DNA from: Massalongia carnosa
Lineage: Eukaryota
Assembly: GCA_965645245.1 (NCBI GenBank)
Contig: OZ287068.1
Coordinates: 1,364,001 to 1,428,000, forward strand
DNA length: 64,000 nucleotides
Direction of reading: 5' to 3'
In this document: positions 27,713-44,298 of the stretch, in pieces
Numbering within the stretch: the stretch's first letter is position 1
Layout: each line of letters opens with the position of its first letter
Position numbers and translations under genes: made by a program
The notes under the pieces: generated by a model
The model's input: the letters and a program-made list of their open reading frames with translations, nothing else
Database searches by the model: none
Told to the model about the DNA's origin: nothing

Positions 27713-30700
27713 AGCAAGGTATTTCAAGGTACAGGATGTAAAGATTTGGTACAATGTTTGTAAGACGGATCAAATTGTTGTTATTCGATGAAGATCTACA
27801 GGATACTAGATGAGAAGTAAAGCGGAGTTATCAGCGAGCAGTCAACAAGGGAAGCTTCCCATAGGTATTCACAACAAGCACGTGATCCGAATCCACACCA
27901 TTGATGCCCCGATTCGGGGGTTTGAAAGAGTGCCACCGTACCGAATTCCGTTCCACGACACAGGTGGATTAATGTCAACTCAATTGTAGAAATCCGATGT
28001 TCTAGGTGAGTATTTTGCTATTATTTTGCCGTTGAGAGTTACAACTATGTACCTGAGCCAAGCTGGGAGCACTGTACAAAGTACTCTAGAAGGCGAAACG
28101 AAAGCTTGGACCATGGCCTGCGAATGTCACGCGACGCCAGTTTTCGCTGCGGCTGTTTCCCTTCCCCAGCTTTCTAGCCTGAGTTGAGTGGGGGTGTGCA
28201 GTGACGTCCTAGTACCGATCAGGTACATTCGCTTGTTTGGCCCTACATGGTACGCACCCACGGCACCTTGTAAAACTTAGTTGTAAGGATGAGGAACAAA
28301 ACGCTAACCAATCAGAAGCACTTAAGCCTTCTAGGCAGCCGCGAGCTCAGGCTAGTCCCGATGTGGACAAGCTCACCTAACTCGATAGGAAGTGATCAGT
28401 GGTACTACGGTTGTACATAATCCGTACCTTTACGTAGCCATAAGCCATAGATATACCTTTTCAACACATCTAGACTATTACTACTCTATCAAGAGTTTTA
28501 GGCTGTTCGAAACCTAAGTTATGAAAAACCTTCATTCTATTCCGCTGATGATTCCCCAAGATGAGTGGCATAATTCTACTCTAGAATCATTCATATACAA
28601 CAATACCAGCATCAATCACAACAGAAAATCAATGACGACTGAAGAGCAAGCAGATACTGGAACGTGATTGAAGATGATATACTCTTCCTTCATCATATTA
28701 ACAAATATATTTGCAATGAGTGCGATCCTTCCTCTCCTCTCGTCTCTAACTTTCCGTCTTCATTCTTCCGGCGATAGCAAACTCAAACCGTAGGTATGGG
28801 AGGAAGATGAAAGAGTGTTAGGATATAAACTCGTAGTTGAGGGGGTGGGAGAGAAAACTAATGGAATCTTCCTAGTATGTGACGACTGCAAATTCTCGCA
28901 GGCGCGAGTCCAAGATTTGATACTCTCATCCTTACCATATGGTGAACTTTCTCGTCTAGGGTTGCCATTATGTATTCCATGTGTGTGTTTGAACATGTTC
29001 ATGTTCATGAATAGAAAAGAGCATGTAAATCGCGATGGTTGGCTCACCCAGACCCCCAATCTGATCAACAGGAATCTATACCAACAAGGGGCGATTCTAC
29101 AAAAGCAACGGACGAGACTGCAAAGTCACCTCGTTGTTTTCATCGCTGTTTTATGCTCGATGGACTCTGACTCGCAATACATTTCTACGCCATTGATCGG
29201 TGGTGCACTTCTTTGTCTCTCCCTCTCCATTACTTCTCAGCACTCGCACCTTCTTGTGCTCGCATAGCATCATCGATTGGGCTCCGTCCATTCTTGGCTG
29301 CTTGTTTTTGCTGCCGTCATAGTCCTTTATACGTTATTGCGGCGGCATTTCAAAACTGCCCCTTTTAAGATATTAAACTTTGTCCTCTCTTCTCAATTTG
29401 GCCAATATTTCCGAGGCAAAGATTAGGCTAATGATTAGTAGTTCCACTCCCTATGGTGGGTAAGATACCATTTTTCAAATGCTTCTCATTGGGTGGAGGA
29501 ACTTCGATCAACTTCATCACCGTCTCTTTGGCTGGCTCTATGGTGGGAGCGCTATGTCCAAAAGAGCCGTATGGACATGGATTGTTGTCTTGGTTCGCTG
29601 CGGTACTATTATTTCTATCTCGCTGGCCAGGCTCCGGAAGTATTGAAAGGATCGCTTCAAGGATAGGAAATAAACTCTGTTGTTAACCATCTACGGATAC
29701 TTCATCTCTCAGTTTCTTCTGTAGCGGTCTGCATTAAACCAAGCTTAATCACAAATACCGAGACGGCTAAATTTGTACGATCATTACGTTTGTGGAGCAT
29801 ATACTCTGCTTATTCGTTTGAGGCACAGATCGTCATAGCGAGCTGTCCGGTGGCCTCATTGGTAGCATAGTTTCAGATCTGGTTGAGGCTTGGAATTCAT
29901 CGCGGAGAAGAGGAAGTTGGTTTCATCTTAGGGGAAGCAACGCCAGAATGACCTTATGGCATTTCGACGCTCCAAACTATTGGTTCTATATTGTATATCT
30001 CCTAGAGTAACTAAGGGCGCTCCAGCCAGGCATTTGATACCGTGGTTGTGCCGCTCAATGGGAATGCCCCGATACTATCTTTGGGCGCTTATAAACACTT
30101 AGGATCTTCATTGTCTGATTACTTAGTCAAGCCAGAAGTGCATTCCCTTACCAGACCTTATGTTGGCTTACTTCTCGTTCGTCACTTGACATACCGAAAC
30201 AATCCAACTTAGGTCGGCTCTCAATGTTTAGCCCTCGATCTCTCCAACGACCATCTATAGAAGATCTTCGGGTGGCCCTTGTGATACCAGTCAATTCAAA
30301 ACGTTTGGTGTCAATGTCGGAGGCAGAAGTGGATGAGGAAATCAAAACGTTTGCTTTAAAAAAAATCTACTTGGATGAGCCATTATGGACTCAACCGTTG
30401 AGCCAATCCCGCCTGTCAGTTCAAGGGGTAAGGAAGCCAGTGAGAATAAGACTTCGGAGAAGAAAAACGTTGAAGGGAAAAAGCGTTGAAGTACGGGGTA
30501 AAAGTGCAGTCCCCCCGAGACGTCGCGAATGACAGTTATAGGACCTCGAAATCAAGAAAGAACCGACACCCACCCCTTCCGGCTGGACTTCTGCTATGGA
30601 CAGGTTTACTTACGAGCTATATCCCGAATCCAAAGATGTCAGTTCCATCAGCATCGCCCTTGCGACGACTTATCCGTCGATCGGCCGGGCCACAAGTGAG

Positions 30701-31109
30701 TGAATTGCGGGGAGGGTTAAGAGCCTTGAAGAGACTGGAGACGCGGCACTGAGGATGGAGATGTGATCTTAAAAAATCGATTGTTTTGTTAGACAGTTGA
30801 TCGGATTTCGATAAATATATTTATAATTACAGAGAGTGTGTTAGTTATGTAAATCGTTTTCAATAACGAATCGCTATAAAAAGAACACAGAAGCCGATAC
30901 ATACACAATTACAGGTTGAGTTTTTGAAACAACAAACCCCGTATCCGTTCCGCGAGCGTCCCCGTTAAAGGAGCATTACCTAGCCGCGTGATACTCCCGC
31001 TTCGCTATTCCCCCAAATCATTCACCTTGGCTTTCTCTCCCCAAGAATAAGAACCTTCTCTTGATCCAGCAAAAGATTCTTGTCGGATATTTGCAAGGGT
31101 TCTTCAATC

Positions 31110-32104
31110 ATGCTACGACCAGGTTATCAAAGAGCCTCCTCAACCAATCTAGGCGGGGGTCCAGCATCCCGGCCGTTGGAGGGGAAACTTGCCATCATCA
31201 CTGGTGGCTCCAGAGGTTTGAGTCTTTCGTTGCAGCCTACCTTTCACCCTGCCTCCTGCTGCGCCTCCTGGCTTTTATTTGCATCCCAACTAAACCACCA
31301 AAAGGCATCGGAGCGGGGATTGCCCGGAATCTTGCCTCCAAAGGCGCTTCCCTCGTCCTAAACTACACTTCCGACTCCTCAGCAAGCATCGCCTCCGATC
31401 TTGCTTCCTCCCTGCAGTCCGCCCACGGCATCAAAGCCATTGCGGTGCAAGCGGATGTGGGTGACCCGAACGGCCCGGCGCATTTGATCTCCGTGGCCAA
31501 GAACCATTTCTCCCATGCGAAAACGGGCAAGTTCCAAATCGACATTGTCATCAACAACGCCGGGATCCACAAGGATACGCTCTTGCAAGATATCACGCCA
31601 GCTGAATACACGCGATTGTATGCCGTCAACGTGCTGGGCCCCATCCTTGTCCTGCAATCCGCGTTGCCCTACCTACCCCACGACCGCTCCGGCCGAATCG
31701 TGAACATTTCGTCCGTCTCTTCCAGCCTGGGCTTCCTCAAGCAGACCCTCTATGGCGGCACGAAAGCCGCTTTGGAGTCCATGACCAGGACGTGGAGCCG
31801 AGAGCTAGCCGAACGCGCAACTGTCAACGCGGTTAACCCGGGACCTGTGGATACGGAGATGTATAATTCGAACAGTGAAGAATTTTTCAGGATAATTAAG
31901 CCTTTCATCCAGAACGCTCCACTCATGAGGGCGAGGGAGGGCATTGATGAGGACAAGTTTCTCCAAGCTGAGGAGAAGGCTGGTGGAAGGCCGGGCTACG
32001 ATCATGAAATCGCAGGGGTTGTGGCCATGCTCTGCTCCGAGGATGGGGCTTGGTGTACCGGCAGCGTGGTGTGCGCCAACGGGGGATTGAAGTTCACTAC
32101 GTAG
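31110..32104 (+). CDS. Short-chain dehydrogenase/reductase (FabG-like); intron 31216-31304
   Basis: LEGKLAIITGGSR|GIG, INNAG, NISS, YGGTK (YxxxK), VNAVNPGP. Confidence 0.95.
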
Positions 32105-32999
32105 ACAAGAGGAAGGATGGCTGACGGTATCGTAGAAATGGATGTCGAAGGATGATGAAAATCCGAATGGATTGCCGCCATGTCTCTATTCACGAATTTG
32201 TAATCTATTTGAGATTTAAACCCTCAAAGTGCGCATTTATTCATGATTTTTCACCGTTACGCTCCTTGGAACGGTATATAACTACCTTTTCCCCTCTTCG
32301 CTACACTATCTCATCACCAGCAAATACTCCAATGCCCAGCTCAGAGCGGGCTTAAAAGTATCCTAGTCTCTTGGCCTATGTACAATGTCTCGCCCATTTC
32401 TGCCTGCGAGCATATTTTTCTACTCTCCAAATCTACCATGCGAAGCATTCTTCGTCCGATTCATGACACATTCCCGTAAGCGCATCTAGAGCTGTTCCTT
32501 TTCTCGCTGCGCTACAAATCATCCACAACCCCCCCCCCCCAAAAAAGCTCTGTCTCACTCAAGGGAAAATACATACCTACATGATCGCCCAAAGGCACTC
32601 TATCTCTGAGCGTATCTACCGCCAATCCCAGAGACTCTTGTGAGCTTTCCTCCAAACTCGAAACACTCTTAGTTCTCACCATCACAACATACTCACCCCT
32701 GCTTCTCGTTTTCCACCGTCAGATAGACAGGTAGCGGAGATAGCCCTGTTCTCTAGAGGTCAGCTGCTCACAGGCAGGCAGGCAGGCAGGCAGGCAGATG
32801 TACAAATGGCCCGAACTGACCACAAATGACCCCAACTTGGTTTGTGGCAGGTTAGGTAGGTAGACATATACAGGCTCCATACCCCATCATCGGGAGGATT
32901 CGAATGTACATACGGATGAGCGACAGAACCGCCTGTCCGCCCGCCCGCTCGCCCACTACCTTCCTCAAAAATATATATAGAAAGGGTAAGTTTTCCTCC

Positions 33000-33766
33000 A
33001 AGGAAGGGTATCTCTCCGCGCCAGGGAAATCCCGCGCCATCAGCAGCTCTTGAACCCGTGAACCTGTCCATCCCATTTATGTAGTTAGGGTATTCCTGGA
33101 CCCCTACGTTTTCCTCCTATCACCTTCAGCCAAAGATTTCACCCCAACATGTCAGCAGCCTTAAGGTATGGAGTATGATGGAGGAGAGACCTTTTTCACT
33201 GGGGGCTAGGGGCTGTTACGGGGGGTTCGGGGGTTTTGTTTTTGGGAATGTTCCTGTGGGGGTTTCTGAGGAATTACTACTTATACTTAGCTCGGGGGGA
33301 TTTGTAGAAATGCGTCGTGTCGTGTCGTGTCTTGACGGTTTCGAACCCGAACCCTAACCCTATTATCACCCCCGTTTCCCCCCCCTTCCCCTTTTCCTTA
33401 TCCCCCCCCGCTGCTGGTGATTTGGCAACCCTCACCAGGAACAAAGATCTTCCGCAGACGGTTTGAGCGGGTGGTTGCCACAAATCGCCAACGAGAGGGA
33501 AAGATGAATCTCAAGGTGGTATTATCGAATACTCGATTACTCGATTTCGGGCAAGGTTGACTAGATGCATAGGTAGGTGCTTAATCTTTCCATCGGTTGT
33601 TTACTGTAAACATAGATCTAGAAGCGATGCATTTCTTTGGAGCGAAGGTTTATTGAGTCAAACCTTTTGAAATCCAAGCTCGAGTTTTCCGTCGATACGG
33701 TTTCCCCTTCCTCCCCTTCTCCCGAAAGCGGGGATTGAGTTGACTGCTGCTGCATCAACCGTATGT
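33000..33766 (+). ncRNA. Candidate structured non-coding RNA (possible telomerase RNA core)
   Basis: No convincing ORF; several nested complementary segments found by eye; AACCCTAACCCTA at 33350-33362; TATA-like run at 32971-32979. Confidence 0.25.
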
Positions 33767-34362
33767 AGGTACATATGTACTCTGTAGGTAGTTTATTACT
33801 TGGCTATGAAAACGTTGGCTAGTTATGGGTGATGGAGGAGGGATGGATATTCATCGATTTTGTTTTTGTTTTGTTTTAGATTACAACGCCAGACTGAAGA
33901 AGAACGAAGGAGAGACCGAGATAGATCAAGGAGAGTTGACGAAATGTGGGAAAAGGAACAAGGAAATTTTGTAGCTTCGCAACTGTGGTAGAAAAGTATA
34001 TCATCTCTCGATCCCTAACTAACCCCTATATGCCCCCTACCTAGGTGGATTTCCATTGAGGCTGCTGAGCGAAGATTTCCCTGAACCCTTTCCCGTCCCC
34101 CTCTGCATGTATTGTACCCAATGGCGACTAGGAGATGGTGAGGCATGCTTTTCCTGTAGGGCGATCATTCCGTAATGACTGTCTAGAATATCTGCAAGGC
34201 ATTTCGGTCGCATGGCTAGCAGCACACCATGCTGTTAGGCCTATGAAACCTTGAGCCTGCGGTCATTCATTTTGTTTTTTTTTAGCTCTCTTAGGTGCGG
34301 TTGCGAGATGAATGCTAGATATGGCGGAATACTGTTCTGCATACCTGAACATTGATGATGCT

Positions 34363-35510
34363 TCAGTCGATCTGCATCGGTATGCTAAATGACCTTGTAA
34401 ATTTGCGTGTTGGCCTCATCTTCTCTGCGTTCTTCAGGTGATGGGTGCTATTGTCCGATCCAGAGTCATGACGACGCTTTTTGCTGTTGAGCAAGGAGCG
34501 TTTGGTTCTAGGAGGCACGTTCTGCATGGCAGTTCTCTGAATCTGGTATTCTTCGCGAAGATCGCGATATTCTGACCGTATGGACCGAGTCGTTGCCGCC
34601 ATCATGTGCAGCCACCAGAGAGCCAGATTGATGCTTAACAAGTTTTCATTTCGCCCACCTTCCTCCTCCCAAGGAATGGACTTGTACTCGATGATCCGAA
34701 GCTCTCTCTTCCCGGTTTCCTCCGGAAGTGGAAGGTTCCCCTGCCACTTCTTCAATGACGGGGTGCCTGTTCTTTTGGAACGTTGGGGCGGCGTTACCGA
34801 ACCAGGACCTTGCTCATTTGGCTTTCGAGACAAACGCACAACGACCAATTCTTCCTGCGTTAAGAGGTAGCCGTATCGCACCTCAGCAAGGTCGCAGTAA
34901 CTGCAGATTTGATGAAAGGGCTTGTGGAATTCAGCCTTATCGGGGCCCATTGACGTGTTCCATTTTGTACTCAATTTCGAGTCTCCCGGTAAGACGTTCA
35001 TATAGCTTGTTCGGGTTTGATTGCTTTCGACTTCACATAAGTTGCCTCGCATGATTCCCGCCCAGTCCGGGCGAAGCCCCTTCTGAGATTTATATTTAGG
35101 AATTTTTGCGTGGCCACCTCTTGCCATGAATATTTCGTTTGCCCCATGACCTTCTGAATCTAAGTCGCCTGACTGCTCCCCACGGTGTGTTAGAGATAGC
35201 GCCTCTGAGATCACCGCGTTGTTCCACCTGATCAGCAATGCTTCGAGGGAATCTTCATCCCGAATCTCGGTGAGATGGAACGGAAAACCACGCTTCAAGT
35301 CGGGTAAATCTTGCTGATGAACCTCAAGCTTCAACAGATCCCCATATATGGCTTCGAGGGTGTCATAAGTGAAATCTGTCCAGTCCACAACCTCTAGCAT
35401 AGTATATGGAGACGTTGACGTTGAATTGATCCCCTTGCAAGAATTGTCATTGTTCACGGTAGGATTGGTCTTCTCAGATAATCGAGCAGCGATAGAGTTT
35501 CACCAGCCAT
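34363..35510 (-). pseudogene. PD-(D/E)XK restriction-endonuclease-fold protein of a fungal family; 1-nt frameshift near codon 15
   Basis: RPDWAG...LPGDSKLSTKW...QICSY...RYGYLLTQEELVVVR...LALWWLHMMA; ATG at 35510 (MAGETLSLLDYLRR) is one base out of frame with the 364-aa ORF (PNPTVNND...). Confidence 0.7.
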
Positions 35511-36043
35511 CGTTACTTTTGTCACTGGACCGCTTGGCTGGACCATGCAAAGCATCCTATGGCCATGATACTGCGAAGATATATCATCTTGGCACAAGGC
35601 TGCCACTTGCGGCTGTCAACAGGACAGCCAGTGGAAAAGGGACGCCAAACAGATGGCATCACGATTGACGATGACCATTCGCTGTAATCCACGATCCCTC
35701 TCTGCCTCATTGCCAACACTTCCAGGTAGGACAAGCGGTATTTCATACAAGCGATTGGATGTCACAAGCTCCCTGTATCGCAAGCAGTCCACTGTGATAG
35801 ATGCTTTTGAAAAGGGTGTGGATAAACCCGTGATGAACGAGGCCCTGTACAGTAACCGATAAGGAAGATGGCTGGCCTGGCCCATTAGCTATGTAGCTGC
35901 TACACCACCTCAGAATGGAAATAAACCCCCCCTTTCTTTCTGAAGGTGGTGCATCACGATTAGCTACATAGCCTCGAGTAAATATTAACGCATGACGGCC
36001 TCGGGTCTCAGGCACTCGACAAATCTATGGATTTGGCACAGTT

Positions 36044-36975
36044 ATGCCCCTGGCAAAAGTAAAGAGAAATCGGCGCGTTGCGAAGACATCCTTACGGAAG
36101 AACTCAACAACAGCTGTGGACTTGGATGAACCTTTGCCGCCTATTTATCTTCCGCAGCTAGATCCTTTTCGTCACCGTAGCAGCCACATCGAGTTTGTCA
36201 GCTTGTTGAGCGAGGAAAGCCCAGAGCCGCCACAGTCATGTGTTTGAAGTCATCATTGAGTCCGATCGCTACGCTTTGAAAATGGCAAGGCCCAATCAAT
36301 TGCTGAAATTGAATCGTCAGCTGATTTATCTCAATACAGTTTAAATTCTACGACGTGGCTGAGCACGAGGCGGGACTGGCAGGTCAACATATCCCACAGG
36401 ATATGATCATTGCTCATTTTGATCCCTTTTACGCCGAATGTCGTGCGTACGGCCGCATCGAGGAGGAAAAATGCAATGGCAAGATTGCTGTGCGTTGCCA
36501 TGGTTTCACTGCCGTACCCGCGCTTCAAGAAGATTATCTCTACAAGACGTTTGACGTTTCAGAGTGGGACAGGCCGCCGGAGGAATACAATCTGCCTGTT
36601 GCGGAAAGACAGTCTTTCCGCGCTATCATCAAGGATTTGGTCCCAGAAAAGGCACCCTTTGACTCAGGTATGGTTAAGCGTATGCTGAAGGACATGATTC
36701 TGTTGCGAAAGATGGCGCTCTTTGTTCGGGACGTCAGGAAAGACAATTATCGAGGTGGGAAACTGGTCGACTTCAGCGTTTCTTGGACGGCACCACACCT
36801 CATGCTTTCGGACATACTTTGGGACGAAGACAAGATCGAACGGGAAATCGGGTGGGAGTTGTCATTGTTCGACACAATGATTAAGGACTCCAGGATCTCA
36901 ACATGGGTGAGAGCTACTCCTAATAAAAAGTACCTCCTCAAGCTTCGTCCTCGCACTTTGAAAAATAATGGATAG
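36044..36975 (+). pseudogene. Protein-kinase-like protein of the Pfam FTA2 type; frameshift in exon 1; GC-AG intron 36285-36339
   Basis: LPQLDPF..IEFVSLL /frameshift/ HVFEVII..YALKM|FKFY; DPFYAECRAYGRI, AVRCHGF, RAIIKDLV, VRDVRKDNY, LVDFSVSWTAPH. Confidence 0.75.
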
Positions 36976-38636
36976 AATTGCTTTTGGGGAAATGTATCCT
37001 AAGCCTGACTCTCCATCGAGCGCTATGCGCCAAGTGGATAATGATACGTCCAGAAATCTGTTCTAAGGAGAAAAAAAAGATATCTGACCTCTAAGCAGGA
37101 AAGCTGGAGGTTCGGGATTTCGTTGTTAGGCCGGGAAGCTCTCGTTTGACGAGTTAAATATTACAGAATATATTCAGAGAGGTCGGATGACAAACCTAAA
37201 GACTTTCGTTGTCCTTTCGGTATTTGGGCTGACAGATATGGAATGAAATAACATAACAGGAGCTAATTCAACAACCGTACAATACTGTTATCACAAAGAG
37301 AATAGATTGAGGGTATAGCTACTTGAACACCCATTTTTGACGGTCGAATATTCCTTCTAATGGTATCACACTCTCCCCTCCTGGAAAACCTGAATTAACC
37401 ACTTATGGAGCATGAAATGTATTTTGCCCGATAAAAGCAAGACAGAGTAACCAATCTAACTTCATCTATAATTCACCCACTGAAAAACGCAGCTGAGCTT
37501 GTCATACCCGCCCATCAAACAATGAGAAAAAGTGATCGTTTCAACCGAAGACTGACGACAAAGTGAAAAACCATGAGAAAAGGAATCACGAAGTGGAGAA
37601 AGGAGCATGAGGCAATGATAAAGAAAAGAGAAAATAAGATTATGAATCAGTAACCAACGTGTAGGCCTTGAAGAATCTAAGTCGGTTGGCTGATGATGGT
37701 TCTGCTAGCCAGAGTCGGGTTTGATGAAGCTGAAGGCCGAGAGACGTTTGATGAGAAATTTGTAGGTGAGGGATTCGAGGATTTAGCTTCCGATTGGTCA
37801 GGAATATCCCACTCTCTGAAGAGGGTTTGGCCAGCCGAGAAGAGGGGGGTGTTCCACCTGCAAACCAAGCATGGTACCAAGTCGCCTGTACTTACGCTTT
37901 GAAAAACGATGACCGTCAAATGTTTTCCTCCAACATCCATCTTCCCCTCTGTTGCGGCGATGAATCCAGTACAGATGCCCCTAAACAAAATTCCACATCG
38001 GCCATTGTTACTACTTGTAGCACCCGCGCTAGGCCCGAGGGACACCTAGATGTTATATCTTAGCGCTGCCCCGCCTTTGTCTCTCCACAGATAGAGTCTA
38101 TTGTCGGTCTTCATGGAGTAGCTCGATGCTAGATATGACTTCATCTTTTTTGTATAAGATGGAATAGGGGTGGCGAGAAGAGCTGTACTTCTGTGGGTAG
38201 CGGAGCAAAACGGTCGTGAGGAAAGTCGTGAGTGAATGGTGAGTAGTGAGACATACAGTGTGTATAGGTAGTTTTAGAGAGGGAGATGAAGACATGGAAT
38301 AAAGTAAGAAAGAGTTAGTGAACGGAATACTTGGTTTTCATGCAGCTTGAGCGCTGCAAGCCGAAAGGCCGCTTTACCTTCGTATTTTGCTTGGTTCCAT
38401 CTCCGCCTTGGTCTGCAAGGCATGACTGCAACAACCTTTAAGGTTCCCGCTCTCCGTGAATATCCCCGCAAGTTCCTGTTTTTCGTTCCTTGATGTACTC
38501 CCGGTCCATAAGTTCTTCGTCCCACTCACCTCTCCCCGCTCTCAATCATACTCTTAGTGACAAGCATATTCCTCTATACTTCACCCTGGATCCAAAAACT
38601 CTTACATTTTTCCCCCCTTCTCAAAAACTACGACGT

Positions 38637-39484
38637 TCAAACGACCTTAATCCAAACCACATTAATCACCACATCGAAGCCTTTCGTCTCCCCCTTCTCG
38701 TACTTAAAGCTCCACATGCCATCCTTGTCGTTGTCCCAGAACGCGCCAGTGGCACAATGCATTCCTCGTCTCGCGATATGGGCTTGGGGAGGCGGATTTT
38801 GGGACGATGAGGGGGGTGGGGTAACAGCTGTGGGGTTGTTAGCCTTTTCTTAAGACGAGGTGAGTCGATGGAGGAATATGTACCATCTGTAGGACTGAGC
38901 TCCGTCGGTTGTAGTAGGGACCCTGAGGTTCCTATAGATGAATCTTGGAGTTGGGGGGTGGGAGTGGTGTGTTGAATTATGGTGCTTGTGACGGCAAATT
39001 TGTATTGAGGGGGCTGATCGGGGATTGACACAGCGGCTAGAAGGGATTGGAGGGTTTTGTTCTGCGTTAGATTCGAGGGATTAGTGTAGAGCTTGATTAG
39101 AAAGAAAAAAAATCGATAAGGTGGTTATACGGTGTGAGCGTAAAGTGAGCAAGGAATGGAACGAAATGAGTGATACATACGATGATAGAGGTATTCCACC
39201 CCGAGGTTTGCGGATGGGAATAGCTGCTCACGGAAGCAAATGTCGCATCGCAAGCCTAAGCAATCCAACATCAGCACCTGGAATTTTTACGAGTGGGGAG
39301 AATAGGAAAACGCTCGGGATTTGGGAAACAGACTTCAATTACGATTTCGCTCATGCGCGAGGGCGGGATGGGCTATGCAGGAAAAGATTCTCATTAGCTG
39401 CTGCGGTAATCATATGCCTAATTTTGGGTTGGAGAGGAGACTTACCGCTATGGGGGCGGAATGGGGTTCTGTTGCTGAAGCCAT
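38637..39484 (-). CDS. DYNLT1: Dynein light chain, Tctex-1 family, multi-exon
   Basis: Spliced ACDATF...WNTSII, YKFAVTSTIIQH, RRGMHCATGAFWDNDKDGMWSFKY...DVVINVVWI. Confidence 0.88.
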
Positions 39485-40066
39485 AATCACGTGTTGGATG
39501 AGTTCTTGGGATTTTGAGGAGATGGGAAATTTGAGGAGGGAAAAGTGCGGTGGTTTGGTAGTCAGTGAATTTGCGGCTCAGGTTTGAAGCATGCAGGGTC
39601 CCTCGCATTGTTATCCCGCTCCGCGCTTGGCGGACAATGGCTTGGCATCCGGGATATTCACCCGAGGGAACCCCACGACAATCCTCCTTCTCACACTGAT
39701 CAAAAAGATTGAGAGAGAAGTTGAAGTAGCAAACATAACTAAAAAAAGCTTTTTGTTGAGTTTTCGATCTTTAGTTAAGATCCATTTCATTTTTCTTGTG
39801 GCAATCTTCTATGCTTCATACCCTTCTCAACTCCCTCTACTTAGTTTGATAACAGGAAGGATTCGCGTCTGGTTTCTTATTCTATTGGTTGCGTGAGGCG
39901 AAAGCTCTGCTTGAGAATTGGATATCTTGTTGACGTTAAGTTTACTATCAATTTCGTAAGGTTTTTCCTTTTCAGCTGAAATCTATAATGGTATAGAAAA
40001 AAGCTGATCGATACAGGTTCTCACATCGCTAGATTTCATCTCTCATCTCCTCCTCCACTATCAGCC

Positions 40067-40526
40067 ATGTCTTCTCAACCCCTTCTTCAAGCCGCCCCCG
40101 GTACCAAACCACCCCCTCTCCCCCCTGCTCCTCCCTCAAAATTCAAAAAACCTTCCTTCTTCACCCGCTAAAGCTGTCTCATCTATAGGAAAGCGTATCT
40201 CCCTCCCCACGCGCGTCGAGCCAAAAGTCTTCTTCGCCAACGAGCGCACCTTCCTCTCTTACCTTAACTTCACCGTTATCCTCGGTGGGCTCGCAATCGG
40301 CCTACTCAATTTCGGCGATAATATCGGGCGTATTTCGGCCGGCTTGTTCACGCTGGTGGCTATGGCTACGATGATTTATGCGCTGGTAACGTTTCATTGG
40401 CGGGCGAAGAGCATTCGCATGAGGGGGCAAGGAGGGTTTGATGATCGACTGGGGCCGACGGTATTAGCGAGTGCGCTGTTGGCGGCTGTTGTTGTAAATT
40501 TTGTGCTAAGGGTTTTGTGGGGGTGA
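40067..40526 (+). CDS. VTC1: Vacuolar transporter chaperone subunit 1
   Basis: [37 protein letters not shown]...FHWRAKSIR...DDRLGPTVL; three hydrophobic helices. Confidence 0.96.
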
Positions 40527-42060
40527 GCCGGGGGCCGGGGGCCGGGGTGGTGTGGTGGTGGGAATGCAGTGTATATATGGGGCGGCAAGGTTGTGAATGG
40601 ATTTTTTTTACTTCCCTTTTCAATATCATGAGGTTTGTATTGAGTCGGAACGGAAAGAATACAGTGGATGTCTACACATTCACCCATGCTCTCCAAGTCT
40701 ATTTAAACCCATATTTATGGCCTTTACAACGAGAATCTCACGACGAAGGACAAGATAACTGCATGCTACTAGATGGTAGGCCAGCTCGGCTGAAGGCTAA
40801 TTAATAGTAAAAATTGTTTGCCCATTGATACGTATGCCTCATCTTCTTCAACCAGGTCCTTGGCAGGTCGTGTGATATCTACCCTCTACATACCCTAGCA
40901 TGCCTAGATACATTGATTGGCGTGCCACAAGGCTAAGCAGTTGAAATGAAGGTCTCACGACGATACAAAGAGTACGACGTTGCAAGGCGAGCCGAATGAT
41001 GTATTCCGTCCAGAGCTAGGTAAAGTGATCGCAACAGAGGCTGTAGAAATATTGGAGCCGTTCTTGACTATTCTTTCCCAATGAGCAAGATGGATACATC
41101 CATGCTGTTGTATGTTGGAGCCATAATCATCATTGATTGAATGTAACACGGTGAGTCATAGTGTCTGAGATTGGACTTGTTCTGACGGGTGAAGCCTGAT
41201 CGTCGATTTTACGTTTGCGACAGTGACGTAACTTTGATTGTTTCAACGACTGTTTCAATCACTACCTTTAAGGAGTACGGAGTAGTTGGTTTGATTTAAT
41301 CTTATCAGGCATCCACGTGACAATACCCTTTTCGCCTGATTCGCTGTTGTGAATCACTGATAAGTGATAAGCCGACAAATGCCCCCTATGCATGAATGCA
41401 TGATGCCACGGCGCCTTTTAGACACCGAGAAGGCCCGTGCCTGGATCAGATCATGTGTGAAATAAATGCTCAATCCACGCTGCCGTACTCCGTACGGAAT
41501 ACAGAGTACGCTGTACAGTACATTGTATTGTACAATTAGTCCCCTAGTCCCTAGTCCATAGTCCCTGTCCCCGTATCTCCAAAGTCCGACGTCAACCGTA
41601 TCTCGTCCTCCCATTTCTACAACCCTCAATTTGGGGTCCCGTTGCGCAACACTGCCTTGTATGATTTTGTAATTTTCGAGCGATTTTTCCTCTTCCTAGT
41701 CGCTCTCTTGCTTCATTTACGATTTTTAATTAAATTATCGCGTGTTGTTTGCCCCTCTATTCTTCACTTCACGGTCGCGACCTTTTAGGCCTTAAATTCG
41801 TTGCGCCCGGGCGATTGGTTTCTTGTTGATCAAACATACTACCGAAAGATCAACAAGAACACCCTCCACAAACATCTCTCAGTATGACAAGTGCGACGCT
41901 TTCATAATTCTATCGCTCCAAGAGTGCCAAACTTGTTGTCGCTTCTAGTGCTTCCATCCAACGTACTCTGCTATAGCCTTGCTGCGTTGTCGCATTTCTG
42001 CGCATTGCCCGCAGCACCCGTTGCACCCTTTGCGCATAATCCCTTCCGGAATCACATGGC

Positions 42061-44298
42061 ATGTTCCGGCTTCCTTGGGGTAGTGGGGCGCGAAACGAGA
42101 AGGTTCCGATAGAGAAAGAGAATTTGCCAGCAACCATAAGACACCCGCTACCCATGACTCGTCCTCCGCTGTTGAACAAGATGAAGCGAAAGCGTGGGGA
42201 TAGCAGGAGCCTACCATCGCCGACAACCGACTATCATGCGGCCAAACGACGTAGTGAACCTGTTAATCACATCAAGCCTTTTGTTGCTCAAGATGATGGG
42301 CTGAGCGCTCCAAGCCAAACACAGCCACACAAAACTTATGTTTGGATCGATGAATCCTCAGCGCTAAAAGCAGAAGTCAATAATATGATGGACTCTGAGA
42401 AAATAGAAAAAGACAGGGTTTGCGCGGACGACACAAGTACTAGTGGTAGACCTGGGCAACAAGAGAAAGCAATCCCAAACACCGATGGACAATGCGCACA
42501 TTCAAACACTCGATCTATCGCGGGCCTCAGGGAGACCATCACATCGCAGTTCAGCCTCGAGATCTTGCTAAAACATAGAGAGCTAAGACTTATAGATCAG
42601 GAAATTGCCAAATGCCAGGTGGCGTTGGAACAGCTCCGCCGGTGTCAGATCATTCCGTACCCAGCTATGACGTCCAAGGTGGAAGATATTCAATCTGTTA
42701 GTTCAGGTTCCGGATACACGCCCGAGACGCACATATTACATCCACCGCCATGGGGTGTGGTGGATGGACCATACACACGTCATTATGCAAAATGGTTGAT
42801 ACCTGACCCTGCCTTTGATGTGAATGTGGAAGCCTCGAAACCTCCACAGACAGCTGGGAAGGCTTTGACGGAACGGACAACTCGGGGGTCCGCATCAGAC
42901 AAGGGCATCGCTGCTGGCAAGTCGCGCTCTCAACGAGGATCCAACAATGCGCGGCTTCAAGCACTTCCGCAAGGCTACCCAGAGCCTAAGGAGGAGAAGG
43001 GCCCGATGATTTTGAAACGCTCCACCGATGGCCAAACGGTAAAGCTAGTATGTATCGATTGTCAGAGGGACAACTTCAACAGCGCGCAGGGATTCATCAA
43101 TCACTGTCGGATTGCGCATGGTCGGGGGTTTGCCAGCCATGATGCTGCAGCTATTGCGTGTGGTGAAGTGGTAGAAGTCGATCAAACCGGAAGCGTGATG
43201 GGGGAGTCGGGCGGAACAACCAGCGCTAGTACTGGTTTGGTACATCCGTTGATCAGGTCCCCCCATGTGACTACATCAACACAAACAAACTTCTCAACTT
43301 CCACCACACAGCCAAAACATTTATCTTCATCGACCGAAACAACCAAAATATCCTCCAGACCATCCATCATTTCCCCAGCGATGTCTGCTCCAAACCCCGG
43401 CGACAGGCCTGCTGAGCTCAGAGATAGCGACTCAAGTCCTTTCACTCCTTCATCCCATACACCTCACTTGTCCGCTTTGTTTGCTCGGATCGGGCGTGGC
43501 GGAGATCTAGAGGAGATGGTTAACGAAGCAAAGACTAGACTGGATGCAAGCGGCGATACAGATCTATCTAGCGAGGACGATGATGAAGGTGAAGGTCAAC
43601 ATCAAGAGAACGATCAAGACAAAAAAGATATCTTTGAACCTGCAGAGAACCCTCACAACTTACACACGCACGGACCAATTCGTGGCGGCCGCCTTCCAAC
43701 CCGTGCAGCAGCAATATCGCCATCTCCTCCGGATCGTTCTCCAAGCAACAAAGGCGTCCATGCAACCCGCCGGCCATCACCACTTCCTCACCTCCACTCC
43801 CGTGTGAGGTATTCCTCCCCATATCCCGACTCACCACCCATACCCACATCGGCCGCCCAGCACTCTCCATCCAGCGAATCCGCGCTCATCAACCCCTCCC
43901 CAACAGCGCTCAACCTTAGCCCCCATACGCTCGAATCCCACCCTGCGCCCAGCCTCGTTTCCGATGACGGCGACTACGAAAACACGCACTCCGAGTCCGA
44001 AAGTCCTAGCTCGACTGACGATGAGGCCGACGGTCGTTACCTTGACATCGAGGTTGAGGAGGGCCATGATGACGAAATCGACGCCCTCGAAGGGGGGAAT
44101 GCCGCAGCAGCTGCCACTGACCACCATCATCTTGGCTTGGCCACGTCCGTAAAAAAACCGCATGCTCCTGCTGCTGCTAGAAGGTCTTCAGCGCTGCGCT
44201 CACCCACCGCCAATCGACCCGGTTCCGCCACCACCGAGCGCCATGTCACTTTCGCTAGTCCCGGGAGACGTTCTGAAGGTAGCAGGGGGGCGCCATAA
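42061..44298 (+). CDS. AHC1: Ahc1-like (ADA HAT complex) protein with coiled coil and C2H2 zinc finger, 745 aa
   Basis: QFSLEILLKHRELRLIDQEIAKCQVALEQLRRC; CIDC-x-NFNSAQGFINHCRIAH. Confidence 0.8.
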   Translation: MFRLPWGSGARNEKVPIEKENLPATIRHPLPMTRPPLLNKMKRKRGDSRSLPSPTTDYHAAKRRSEPVNHIKPFVAQDDGLSAPSQTQPHKTYVWIDESSALKAEVNNMMDSEKIEKDRVCADDTSTSGRPGQQEKAIPNTDGQCAHSNTRSIAGLRETITSQFSLEILLKHRELRLIDQEIAKCQVALEQLRRCQIIPYPAMTSKVEDIQSVSSGSGYTPETHILHPPPWGVVDGPYTRHYAKWLIPDPAFDVNVEASKPPQTAGKALTERTTRGSASDKGIAAGKSRSQRGSNNARLQALPQGYPEPKEEKGPMILKRSTDGQTVKLVCIDCQRDNFNSAQGFINHCRIAHGRGFASHDAAAIACGEVVEVDQTGSVMGESGGTTSASTGLVHPLIRSPHVTTSTQTNFSTSTTQPKHLSSSTETTKISSRPSIISPAMSAPNPGDRPAELRDSDSSPFTPSSHTPHLSALFARIGRGGDLEEMVNEAKTRLDASGDTDLSSEDDDEGEGQHQENDQDKKDIFEPAENPHNLHTHGPIRGGRLPTRAAAISPSPPDRSPSNKGVHATRRPSPLPHLHSRVRYSSPYPDSPPIPTSAAQHSPSSESALINPSPTALNLSPHTLESHPAPSLVSDDGDYENTHSESESPSSTDDEADGRYLDIEVEEGHDDEIDALEGGNAAAAATDHHHLGLATSVKKPHAPAAARRSSALRSPTANRPGSATTERHVTFASPGRRSEGSRGAP

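Follow-up and report, generated by a model that had tools for sequence, protein, structure and literature searches.

We found that positions 34,363 to 36,975 of the window, the stretch of 64,000 nucleotides that was analysed (Massalongia carnosa assembly GCA_965645245.1, contig OZ287068.1, positions 1,364,001 to 1,428,000 of the forward strand), hold a two-gene cassette that is conserved among filamentous ascomycetes but has decayed in this copy. The cassette consists of a nuclease-like gene, on the minus strand in the window, and a divergently transcribed gene for a putative kinase of the Pfam family FTA2.

A frameshifted gene pair in Massalongia carnosa

The features of the locus are summarized in Table 1. 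The ATGs at 35510 (minus strand) and 36044 (plus strand) start two divergent genes and are separated by 533 bp, which agrees with the preliminary description of this DNA, where they had been placed about 530 bp apart. As had also been stated there, the pair sits between an SDR gene, located at 30992-32104 on the plus strand, and Tctex-1, an exon of which was located at 38640-38849 on the minus strand (E 5.8e-7).

Table 1. Features of the gene pair, in positions of the window
Feature	Positions	Strand	Remarks
Nuclease-like gene	34363..35510	-	Start ATG 35510-35508, stop 34365-34363; restriction-endonuclease fold family (predicted)
Frameshift, nuclease-like gene	35464..35470	-	1 base absent, codon of conserved Pro-15
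Catalytic-type residues, nuclease-like protein	34909..35256	-	E82, P144-D145, D173-x-K175, Q197...Y201, all intact
Inter-start spacer, 533 bp	35511..36043	.	Shared bidirectional promoter presumed
FTA2-family kinase exon 1	36044..36284	+	Frame change inside; 3' end encodes YALKM
Conserved kinase-gene intron, phase 0	36285..36339	+	After YALK[VMI]; GCAAGG...ACAG, GC donor
FTA2-family kinase exon 2	36340..36975	+	Stop 36973-36975; Pfam FTA2 match

The long open reading frame of the nuclease-like gene (34363..35499) comprises 378 aa from stop to stop and is entered from the ATG at 35510 through a frame shift after 15 codons. The relatives share an N-terminus of the form MAxxxLxLxxYLxxPNP, and this segment is encoded in the window from 35510 onward in another frame, the base missing near 35466 causing the ATG frame to hit a TGA 3 codons on. 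The source annotation of this gene (P0001) starts from an internal Met at 35403 and gives a protein of 345 aa. For the kinase gene, the frame change of exon 1 was placed between about 36222 and 36230 with the help of a three-frame translation, and in tblastn of P0140 and P0188 the frame switched between 36223 and 36231. At the frameshift sites of both genes, identical letters were present in contigs of runs X1, X3, X4, and X5, which represent three studies, and run X4, from one strain, carried an additional 1-bp deletion at 36417 in kinase exon 2. The intron donor of the kinase gene is GC in the window but GT in every other distinct locus with an identified junction (14 of 14); in 2 loci, the junction was not found. 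Thus, the window pair is a dead copy, with each gene frameshifted near its N-terminus. Because of the frameshifts in both genes, found across the contigs of three studies, the cassette inferred in the preliminary description cannot be active in the present form of this copy, and in annotation both genes are to be marked as pseudogenes or truncated.

Predicted nuclease and FTA2-family kinase

The nuclease-like family yielded 153 homologues at E<=1e-3, and it comprises 1703 clusters at 50% identity and is without a Pfam model. The PD...DxK...QxxxY motifs that had been pointed out in the minus-strand gene were all found: RPDWAG contains D145 of the open reading frame (about 35065-35067), GDSKL contains D173 and K175 (about 34975-34983), and QICSY contains Q197 and Y201. 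When 14 and 62 members were aligned, P-D-W, G-D-x-K, and Q...Y-C as well as an upstream E were invariant or at least 90% conserved; among the 62 sequences, P149-D150-W151 was invariant, and D171 and K173 were at least 90% conserved.

In a structure model of the nuclease-like protein (pLDDT 80.5), the conserved PD/DxK residues map to strands 151-155 and 165-172, and the catalytic-type residues are placed on helix 1, strands 2 and 3, and the subsequent helix. The VIA-align search with the relative P0089 gave the BpuSI nuclease domain (3s1s) as the best match, with a Z of 9.4 and an rmsd of 3.4 over 149 aa, which is moderately above background, because best Z values of 7-8 are common for models without a true match. 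Restriction enzymes or other nucleases of the PD-(D/E)xK fold accounted for 23 of the best 25 rows, and the model displayed the alpha-beta-beta-beta-alpha-beta core fold of this superfamily. DrdV 7lo5 and the type I enzymes HsdR 3h1t and 2w00 were also among the best structural matches (Z 7.5, 6.4, and 5.5, respectively). The nuclease-like protein shares with these type IIG/IIL and type I restriction enzymes the E, PD, (D/E)xK, and QxxxY elements in identical order, whereas its sequence identity to them is 8-14%. Moreover, it differs from them in being eukaryotic and stand-alone, without methylase or helicase partner domains, and in carrying an additional conserved segment at the N-terminus and an LxLWWxH helix at the C-terminus.

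Foldseek with the nuclease-like model found nothing significant (best E 0.053), the PDB sequence-profile search of the family gave no match at E<=10, and Pfam gave no real match in the 62 members; 5 diverse members likewise had no Pfam match at E<=10, and NCBIfam matched neither protein of the pair. For P0111, UniRef gives the name "Fungal-type protein kinase domain-containing", which was not reproduced, because Pfam gave no match. The structure search and the conserved PD-(D/E)xK/QxxxY constellation support the earlier view that the minus-strand gene is nuclease-like. On the model, its product of ~380 aa has a restriction-endonuclease-like fold with the complete catalytic-type constellation and is a predicted nuclease.

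The open reading frame of kinase exon 2 (36325..36975) matched Pfam FTA2 (PF13095) with an E of 6.3e-31 and 108.1 bits against a cut-off of 30.2, and the full-length relative P0188 matched it at 170.2 bits; Pfam presumably assigns FTA2 to its kinase clan. The four kinase hallmarks listed in the preliminary description were located in the window, namely, the beta-3 Lys of YALK (codon 36279-36281), the alpha-C Glu of ECRAY (36436-36438), the catalytic Asp and the Asn of RDVRKDN (36730-36732 and 36745-36747), and the metal-binding Asp of DFS (36769-36771). Across 62 FTA2-family sequences, E109, N207, and D215 were invariant and D202 was at least 90% conserved. The [YF]A[LIVM]K motif was present in 20 of the 30 listed family proteins of at least 255 aa, the remainder mostly being without the N-terminal exon.

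The model of P0188 (pLDDT 88.8) has a bilobal kinase fold, with which Foldseek matched at least 500 PDB kinase chains at E<=1e-3, the best being GAK (1.7e-6), and the PDB sequence-profile search of FTA2 gave one weak kinase row (E 0.38). Outside FTA2, the closest kinases are APH/ABC1/Kdo/RIO1-like. The PF13095 match and the fold of the relative's model thus bore out the suspicion that the plus-strand gene belongs to FTA2 and that the kinetochore label of this family hides a kinase fold. These data indicated that the plus-strand gene encodes a predicted minimal kinase of ~290 aa with all catalytic residues.

Linkage, co-inheritance, and turnover of the pair

The preliminary description had named a lack of enriched adjacency between the two families as grounds for refutation and had asked whether their trees are congruent; the adjacency result favours its proposal, and the trees are congruent. 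Of 62 metagenome loci scanned from the nuclease side, 46 had an FTA2 gene head-to-head with the nuclease-like gene on its upstream side, corresponding to 20 of 28 distinct lineages; in two named genomes, the locus tags of the two genes are neighbours, and for 18 protein pairs contigs of identical size were read from the tables. The kinase gene was absent from 4 distinct lineages that match weakly and that had 1.9 kb or more of sequence upstream. Comparison of the two gene trees revealed 17 of 30 splits in common (random mean, 0.2; random maximum, 3), and the Mantel correlation between the families was 0.83, a value reached in 0 of 9999 permutations. That the two genes are chance neighbours in one genome, a reading favoured by nothing beyond the single locus, is refuted by the recurrent orientation and the congruent trees, and we consider its probability virtually nil. 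The pair is inherited and duplicated as one unit and shows the tight linkage and co-inheritance expected of toxin/antidote pairs, with the congruence of the gene trees being owed in part to shared species history.

The named homologues belong mostly to lichen-forming fungi. The spacer between the starts measured 428-1215 bp in 13 of 16 other distinct pairs, those whose starts were judged correctly assigned; L026, L042, and L044 (computed spacers of 365, 2073, and 2065) were left out of this range, and the spacer of the window is 643 when measured from the internal Met start. In 17 distinct loci, the open reading frames of the pair were the sole conserved ones, with no third conserved open reading frame and no recombinase or transposase within about 6 kb. 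No fused nuclease-kinase form was found: the 11 longest of the best 150 nuclease-family representatives gave no kinase match in Pfam, and the 1 longer FTA2 relative found was not such a fusion.

Outside the window, both genes are under purifying selection, with dN/dS values of 0.10-0.41 in 6 pairs of loci, which fits a useful cellular function and a selfish one equally. Up to 5 different pairs occur in single metagenome assemblies, the copies within an assembly showing roughly 30-40% identity to the protein in the window, and one named genome has 2 paralogues with 71% identity. Decay was also seen elsewhere: L024 carries a nonsense allele compared with L023, and L025 and L051 are copies with multiple stop codons. 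Null alleles and dead copies are thus frequent, and the pair is therefore dispensable.

Relation to Spok and possible roles of the pair

According to passages of PMC6660238 and PMC4022471, the PD-(D/E)XK nuclease of Spok with its QxxxY motif is required for killing and the Kdo-like kinase for resistance, and Spok genes are patchy, multi-copy, and frequently pseudogenised; the division of tasks stated in the preliminary description agrees with PMC6660238. According to these papers and PMC12693581, Spok1-4 and FuSpok (Podospora and Fusarium) couple such a nuclease to a small Kdo/ELK-like kinase, are predicted to be nuclear, and belong to Pezizomycotina, features that they share with the pair described here together with multiple copies and frequent pseudogenes. 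HsdR 3h1t, reported in PMC6660238 as the top HHpred match of the Spok nuclease domain, is also a structural match of our nuclease-like model. In contrast, a Spok protein is a single chain of some 700-800 aa, whereas the pair consists of two divergently transcribed genes. An N-terminal coiled coil and the unknown domain 1 are present in Spok, as is a Cys/His cluster preceding the kinase; neither a coiled coil nor a Cys cluster of this kind was seen in the window pair, whose kinase, unlike that of Spok, belongs to Pfam family FTA2.

As a lead, the Atlas language-model features connected the nuclease-like family (score 0.92, 183 of 256 features) to clusters with SPOK2_N (PF27653) on 76% of their members. 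The Pfam scan found SPOK2_N in 0 of 62 nuclease-like members, with a Pfam copy that may lack PF27653. Among the listed matches of a literature search on Spok homologues, there was no two-gene Spok form and no mention of SPOK2_N/PF27653, and a search for a divergently transcribed nuclease-kinase toxin-antidote pair in Pezizomycotina found no paper on such a pair. Spok proteins are named as InterPro IPR052396 in PMC12693581.

The pair also resembles another group of eukaryotic conflict proteins in which both activities are united. Crinkler or CR-type effectors, as Zhang and colleagues reportedly described in 2016, combine restriction-endonuclease-fold and kinase domains. These effectors differ from the window pair in being fused, often secreted, and equipped with a Crinkler header domain, none of which was seen here. 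The window pair is a two-gene version of an already known nuclease-kinase conflict design.

Because of the domain pairing, the multi-copy spread, the frequent pseudogenes, and the language-model lead to SPOK2_N clusters, we infer a Spok-like toxin/antidote or drive role. A decayed two-gene cassette with a conflict role of this type is, by analogy, the best explanation of the data as a whole, and we rate it slightly below an even chance. By analogy with Spok, the nuclease-like protein would act in the nucleus as a DNA-damaging effector, and the kinase, expressed from the promoter that the two genes share, would restrain it by phosphorylating either the nuclease itself or a target common to both; the conserved C-terminal RSFS...PMQ(I/V)(D/E) tail is a speculative candidate site. 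The pair would then be a conflict element of the toxin/antidote type that spreads, duplicates, and later decays, as in the window copy. A complex prediction with residues 1-306 of P0089 and residues 22-288 of P0188 scored 0.02, which is uninformative in either direction. The fuller version of this idea is more tentative, and we think it rather doubtful: in a split Spok design, the nuclease-like gene would be the killer and the FTA2 kinase the antidote, the pair would form a widespread toxin/antidote or meiotic-drive family of lichen-forming and other filamentous ascomycetes, and FTA2 would largely consist of antidote kinases whose toxins are the 1703-cluster family.

Purifying selection on both genes, their co-inheritance, and the shared promoter region would also be expected of a cooperative nuclear module, in which the kinase activates the nuclease or targets it to DNA or chromatin for repair, recombination, or genome defence against invading DNA. 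The C-terminal chromodomain found on 3 kinase partners (E 1e-11 to 1e-13) points to chromatin, and basic stretches in both proteins, as read from their sequences, resemble nuclear localization signals. However, the multi-copy paralogy in assemblies and genomes and the null or dead copies, that of the window included, argue against such a module, since dispensability would be unusual for a core repair function, and no additional pathway genes are conserved at the pair; we regard this reading as possible and on the unlikely side. It is improbable that the pair is part of, or domesticated from, a mobile element with the nuclease as its cutting or homing enzyme. The pair does duplicate as a unit into differing genomic surroundings and has left many decayed copies, some with several stop codons, and PMC12693581, citing Zhang et al. 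2016, gives bacterial transposons as the presumed source of such nuclease domains. Nevertheless, no terminal inverted or direct repeats flank the window's pair (31500-40000 gave only short chance-like matches), the 17 distinct loci are devoid of mobility genes as described above, and the low identity of the copies within an assembly does not suggest recent transposition bursts.

The name of the Pfam family is all that favours a true kinetochore Fta2 with an unrelated neighbour on the minus strand. The plus-strand gene exceeds the threshold of PF13095, the family of Schizosaccharomyces pombe Fta2, a subunit of the kinetochore Sim4 complex; unlike that protein, the members studied here are catalytically complete predicted kinases that are multi-copy, dispensable, and linked to a nuclease-like gene. 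The kinase fold with its complete catalytic set, the several paralogues per assembly, and the recurrent pairing with the nuclease-like gene, whose phylogeny matches that of the kinase gene, all speak against this assignment, as does the pseudogenization in the contigs of three studies, which would be intolerable for an essential subunit unless another copy serves. A kinetochore role for these FTA2 members looks unlikely, and the reading of the locus as Fta2 beside an unrelated gene is most improbable.

If the Spok-like toxin/antidote role holds, the combination of nuclease and kinase known from Spok would also occur split over two separable genes, and neutralisation of the nuclease by the kinase would be easier to study in the split pair because each protein can be expressed alone. 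It would also provide a functional lead for a large fungal family that Pfam does not model and correct the misleading kinetochore label on many FTA2 genes. In addition, the pair would be a pointer to elements of genetic conflict in lichen-forming fungi, which are not readily crossed in the laboratory.

FTA2 genes also occur in settings other than the pair, which speaks against the toxin/antidote reading. One FTA2 protein was found in the range of 379-2000 aa, and it is fused to a Suc_Fer-like domain. The literature search on the PF13095/FTA2 domain yielded only the preprint 10.1101/721753, in which FTA2-domain proteins, fusions among them, are listed on Fusarium supernumerary contigs.

Layout and decay of the window copy

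The preliminary description had placed the nuclease-like minus gene and the FTA2-family plus gene head to head, with start codons about 530 bp apart, and the two ATGs are indeed divergent, with a separation of 533 bp. As summarized in the table, the nuclease-like protein P0001 is annotated from an internal Met, because the frame opened by the upstream ATG stops and the protein resumes in another frame. A repeat search of 31500-40000 gave only short, chance-like matches, with nothing notable, inverted or direct, around the pair, and GC content was even (0.41-0.57 in 500-bp windows from 30000 to 41000).

Features of the pair and of its surroundings (window positions)
Feature	Position	Strand	Remark
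Minus gene, start	ATG 35510	-	Opening peptide MAGETLSLLDYLRRP, then stop in that frame
Minus gene, main ORF	34363..35499	-	Rest of protein, different frame from ATG
P0001 (345 aa), annotated start	Internal Met 35403	-	Source annotation
Kinase gene, exon 1	ATG 36044 to 36284	+	Ends YALKM; frame change between ~36222 and 36230
Kinase gene, intron	36285-36339	+	55 nt, after YALKM; GC donor
Kinase gene, remainder	ORF ending 36975	+	Downstream of the intron
SDR gene	30992-32104	+	Upstream neighbour
Tctex-1 exon	38640-38849	-	Neighbour on other side
ORF with DUF202 domain	40008-40526	+	E = 5e-15
752-aa open frame	42040-44298	+	No Pfam match at E ≤ 1

Judged from its reading frames, the window copy is a dead or crippled, pseudogenised example of the pair. 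The minus gene encodes the conserved start from 35510 and loses frame at a Pro codon near 35466, and the kinase gene loses frame ahead of the segment bearing the β3 Lys. The kinase intron donor is GC in the window, versus GT in every one of the 14 other distinct loci where the exon junction was located (in 2 it was not located); as introns with a GC donor can still be spliced, the change is no more than a possible third lesion. Four sequencing runs supplied contigs for comparison over 34200-37100: X1, which may be the window's source; X3, the same organism in another sample; X4, a lichen metagenome from another study; and X5, from a third study, covering the region in pieces. No difference was seen at either frameshift site in the contigs of the four runs (cover being partial for X5), and because both sites were identical, the frameshifts are not assembly errors. 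X4 differed from the window at 9 other letters and lacked one base at 36417 in kinase exon 2. Within the two genes it carries 7 substitutions, 5 altering an amino acid and 2 silent, a pattern, in small numbers, that neutral decay would give. The relative P0122 (161 aa, 99% identical), whose contig is as long as the X4 contig (29955), probably derives from it. A separate short contig corresponding to 36474-36539 (66 bases within kinase exon 2, 8 of them different) was present in X3, X4 and X5, and in X3 its word depth was ~3x higher (2719 versus 897); these extra contigs are probably further FTA2 paralogues of the same genome.

Decay is common in the nuclease-kinase pair family. Among loci on metagenome contigs, L023 and L024 are identical over 3.4 kb but for two letters. 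The second of these, a G>A at 6525 of L023, is read here as a premature stop because L024's shortened nuclease ORF starts just after it. The L024 kinase gene has an unbroken frame and differs from that of L023 by one substitution, and L024 thus looks like a nuclease-null, kinase-intact allele. L025 and L051 carry several in-frame stops.

Predicted folds of the two products

A word-indexed search retrieved 153 minus-gene relatives at E ≤ 1e-3, and a profile search placed 1703 clusters at 50% identity in the nuclease-like family, 1057 of them at E ≤ 1e-10. None of 62 family members matched any Pfam model, and the window's own protein was without a match in NCBIfam. A model of the relative P0089 (pLDDT 80.5, core >90, tail disordered) gave no significant Foldseek match (best E 0.053), the top rows being nuclease-like all the same. 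In an independent structure search, the nuclease domain of BpuSI (type IIG) ranked first (Z 9.4, rmsd 3.4, 149 residues), followed by DrdV (Z 7.5), two REase-like proteins (7.0 and 6.8), HsdR 3h1t (6.4) and many type II enzymes. We take 23 of the 25 top rows, by title or general knowledge, to be nucleases of the restriction-endonuclease fold, the remaining 2 being mitoribosomal proteins. Because best Z values of 7-8 are common background in such searches, the fold call rests jointly on the score, the uniform match list and the residues, by which the minus-gene product is predicted to have a restriction-endonuclease fold.

In P0089 these residues are E89 (first long helix), P149-D150-W151 (strand 2), D171-x-K173 (strand 3) and Q203...Y207 (following helix), all in columns that are invariant or ≥90% conserved in 62 sequences. 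The PD...DxK...QxxxY motifs noticed in the preliminary description were thereby borne out, with every predicted catalytic-type residue intact in the window copy. The relatives begin with MAxxxLxLxxYLxxPNPxV (N and P ≥90% conserved), a confident part of the P0089 fold (pLDDT 90-96). After the disordered basic tail, a C-terminal motif, R-S-F-(S/G)-x-P-M-Q-(I/V/L)-(D/E), occurs in the window (34366-34420) and in its closest relatives, P0002, P0009, P0012 and P0014; speculatively, it may serve for docking or be phosphorylated. The UniRef name of the family member P0111, 'Fungal-type protein kinase domain-containing protein', looks misleading, because no kinase family matched it at E ≤ 10.

The plus gene had been assigned to FTA2, with a kinase fold suspected behind that label. 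Kinase exon 2 matched Pfam PF13095 (FTA2) at 108 bits (cut-off 30.2), and the AlphaFold2 model of P0188, a well-annotated relative (pLDDT 88.8), retrieved at least 500 chains of protein kinases at E ≤ 1e-3 in Foldseek, GAK, CK2 and RIOK3 among them; both the membership and the predicted fold were thus upheld. The proposed hallmarks, namely the β3 Lys (YALK), αC Glu (ECRAY), RDVRKDN catalytic loop and DFS Asp, are present and conserved across the family, for which 169 relatives were retrieved (full-length members ~270-300 aa). In protein-language-model features, the nearest non-FTA2 clusters were fungal APH/ABC1/Kdo/RIO1-like small kinases. The Pfam kinase clan presumably includes FTA2.

Pairing and co-divergence across loci

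The nuclease-family alignment, used as query against metagenome contigs, yielded 62 loci. An FTA2-family gene lay immediately upstream on the opposite strand in 46 of them, an enrichment of head-to-head adjacency as anticipated; it lay on the other side, tail to tail, in 2 (L061 and L062, weak partial nuclease-family matches, which may represent a different arrangement in a distant subfamily) and was not found in 14. When the loci were grouped into 28 DNA clusters at ≥93% identity, 20 held the head-to-head pair, 4 had <1.2 kb of upstream DNA, and 4, the weakest and mostly fragmentary nuclease matches, had ≥1.9 kb without an FTA2 gene. Protein tables showed, for two named genomes, adjacent locus tags (MMC33_009472/009473 and Q9190_002445/002446) and, on our own reading, 18 nuclease/kinase protein pairs with equally long longest contigs, a hint of linkage. 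Among 16 other distinct pairs, 13 had starts that were judged correctly assigned, and their start-to-start spacers measured 428-1215 bp; the values computed for L026, L042 and L044 (365, 2073 and 2065) were taken as mis-assigned starts. Apart from the nuclease ORF and both kinase exons, no ORF group was common to all 17 distinct loci, a few smaller groups (3-4 loci each) overlapping the pair's genes on the opposite strand, and no third gene travelled with the pair within ~6 kb in these loci.

Trees were built from 17 distinct intact pairs (window included) and 16 of the 18 database pairs matched by longest contig; pairs whose nuclease is a short fragment (P0024 and P0033/P0039) were omitted. 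The expected congruence was observed: 17 of 30 maximum-likelihood splits were common to the two trees (label shuffles: mean 0.2, maximum 3), and patristic distances correlated at r = 0.83 (0 of 9999 permutations as high). P0048/P0133, paired by longest contig alone, was placed discordantly. Common species history must account for some of this agreement. Duplication likewise involves the pair as a whole, since up to 5 different pairs occur per metagenome assembly (by accession prefixes, which may derive from more than one fungus) and one named genome holds two paralogues at 71% identity. Divergence was measurable between 6 pairs of related loci, a further two comparisons being either saturated or identical. 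In these 6 the nuclease-like gene had dN/dS values of 0.16-0.41 and the kinase exon values of 0.10-0.39, which argue that both genes are functional in other lineages.

Comparison with Spok and proposed role

According to passages of PMC6660238, killing requires the PD-(D/E)XK domain of Spok, with its QxxxY motif, resistance requires the C-terminal Kdo-like kinase domain, and the kinase can counter the nuclease in cis and in trans. Killing appears to work via DNA degradation, as mentioned in a part of PMC12693581 citing Urquhart and Gardiner, and an excerpt of PMC4022471 describes Spok-like genes as patchy, multi-copy and frequently pseudogenes. The pair resembles Spok in its two predicted activities, its motif set and its life history of paralogues, null alleles and dead copies, but lacks the single-polypeptide architecture that defines the Spok family. 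Its language-model features also resembled those of Pfam SPOK2_N clusters (score 0.92, 183 of 256 features), which we treat as a lead only.

The two folds and the family's intact catalytic-type residues are established, as are the conserved divergent layout, the parallel divergence of both genes, the selection on them and the decayed state of the window copy. Beyond this, the Spok parallels in activities, motifs, life history and SPOK2_N features led us to regard the pair, by analogy, as most likely a toxin/antidote-type conflict cassette, in which the nuclease-like protein would act as a DNA-damaging agent under the restraint of the co-expressed kinase. The main rival is a cooperative chromatin or genome-defence module. 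Three FTA2-family kinases, P0153, P0154 and P0159, partners of the nuclease-like proteins P0036 and P0026, have a chromodomain at the C-terminus (Pfam Chromo, E 1e-11 to 1e-13), which suggests that one kinase subclade is targeted to methylated chromatin; this fits either such a module or a toxin/antidote cassette.

We rate the pair as a two-gene form of an already known nuclease-kinase conflict design, the two-gene form being new. No description of it was found in the literature searched, the reach of which stopped short of Zhang et al. 2016, reportedly the key paper on nuclease-kinase effectors. No fused nuclease-kinase form was found among the longer proteins covered: the 11 longest among the best 150 nuclease-family representatives had no Pfam domain, and the one longer FTA2 relative, P0121 (680 aa), instead joins the FTA2 domain to a Sucrase/ferredoxin-like (Suc_Fer-like) domain in a single annotated protein, which may be a merged gene model.
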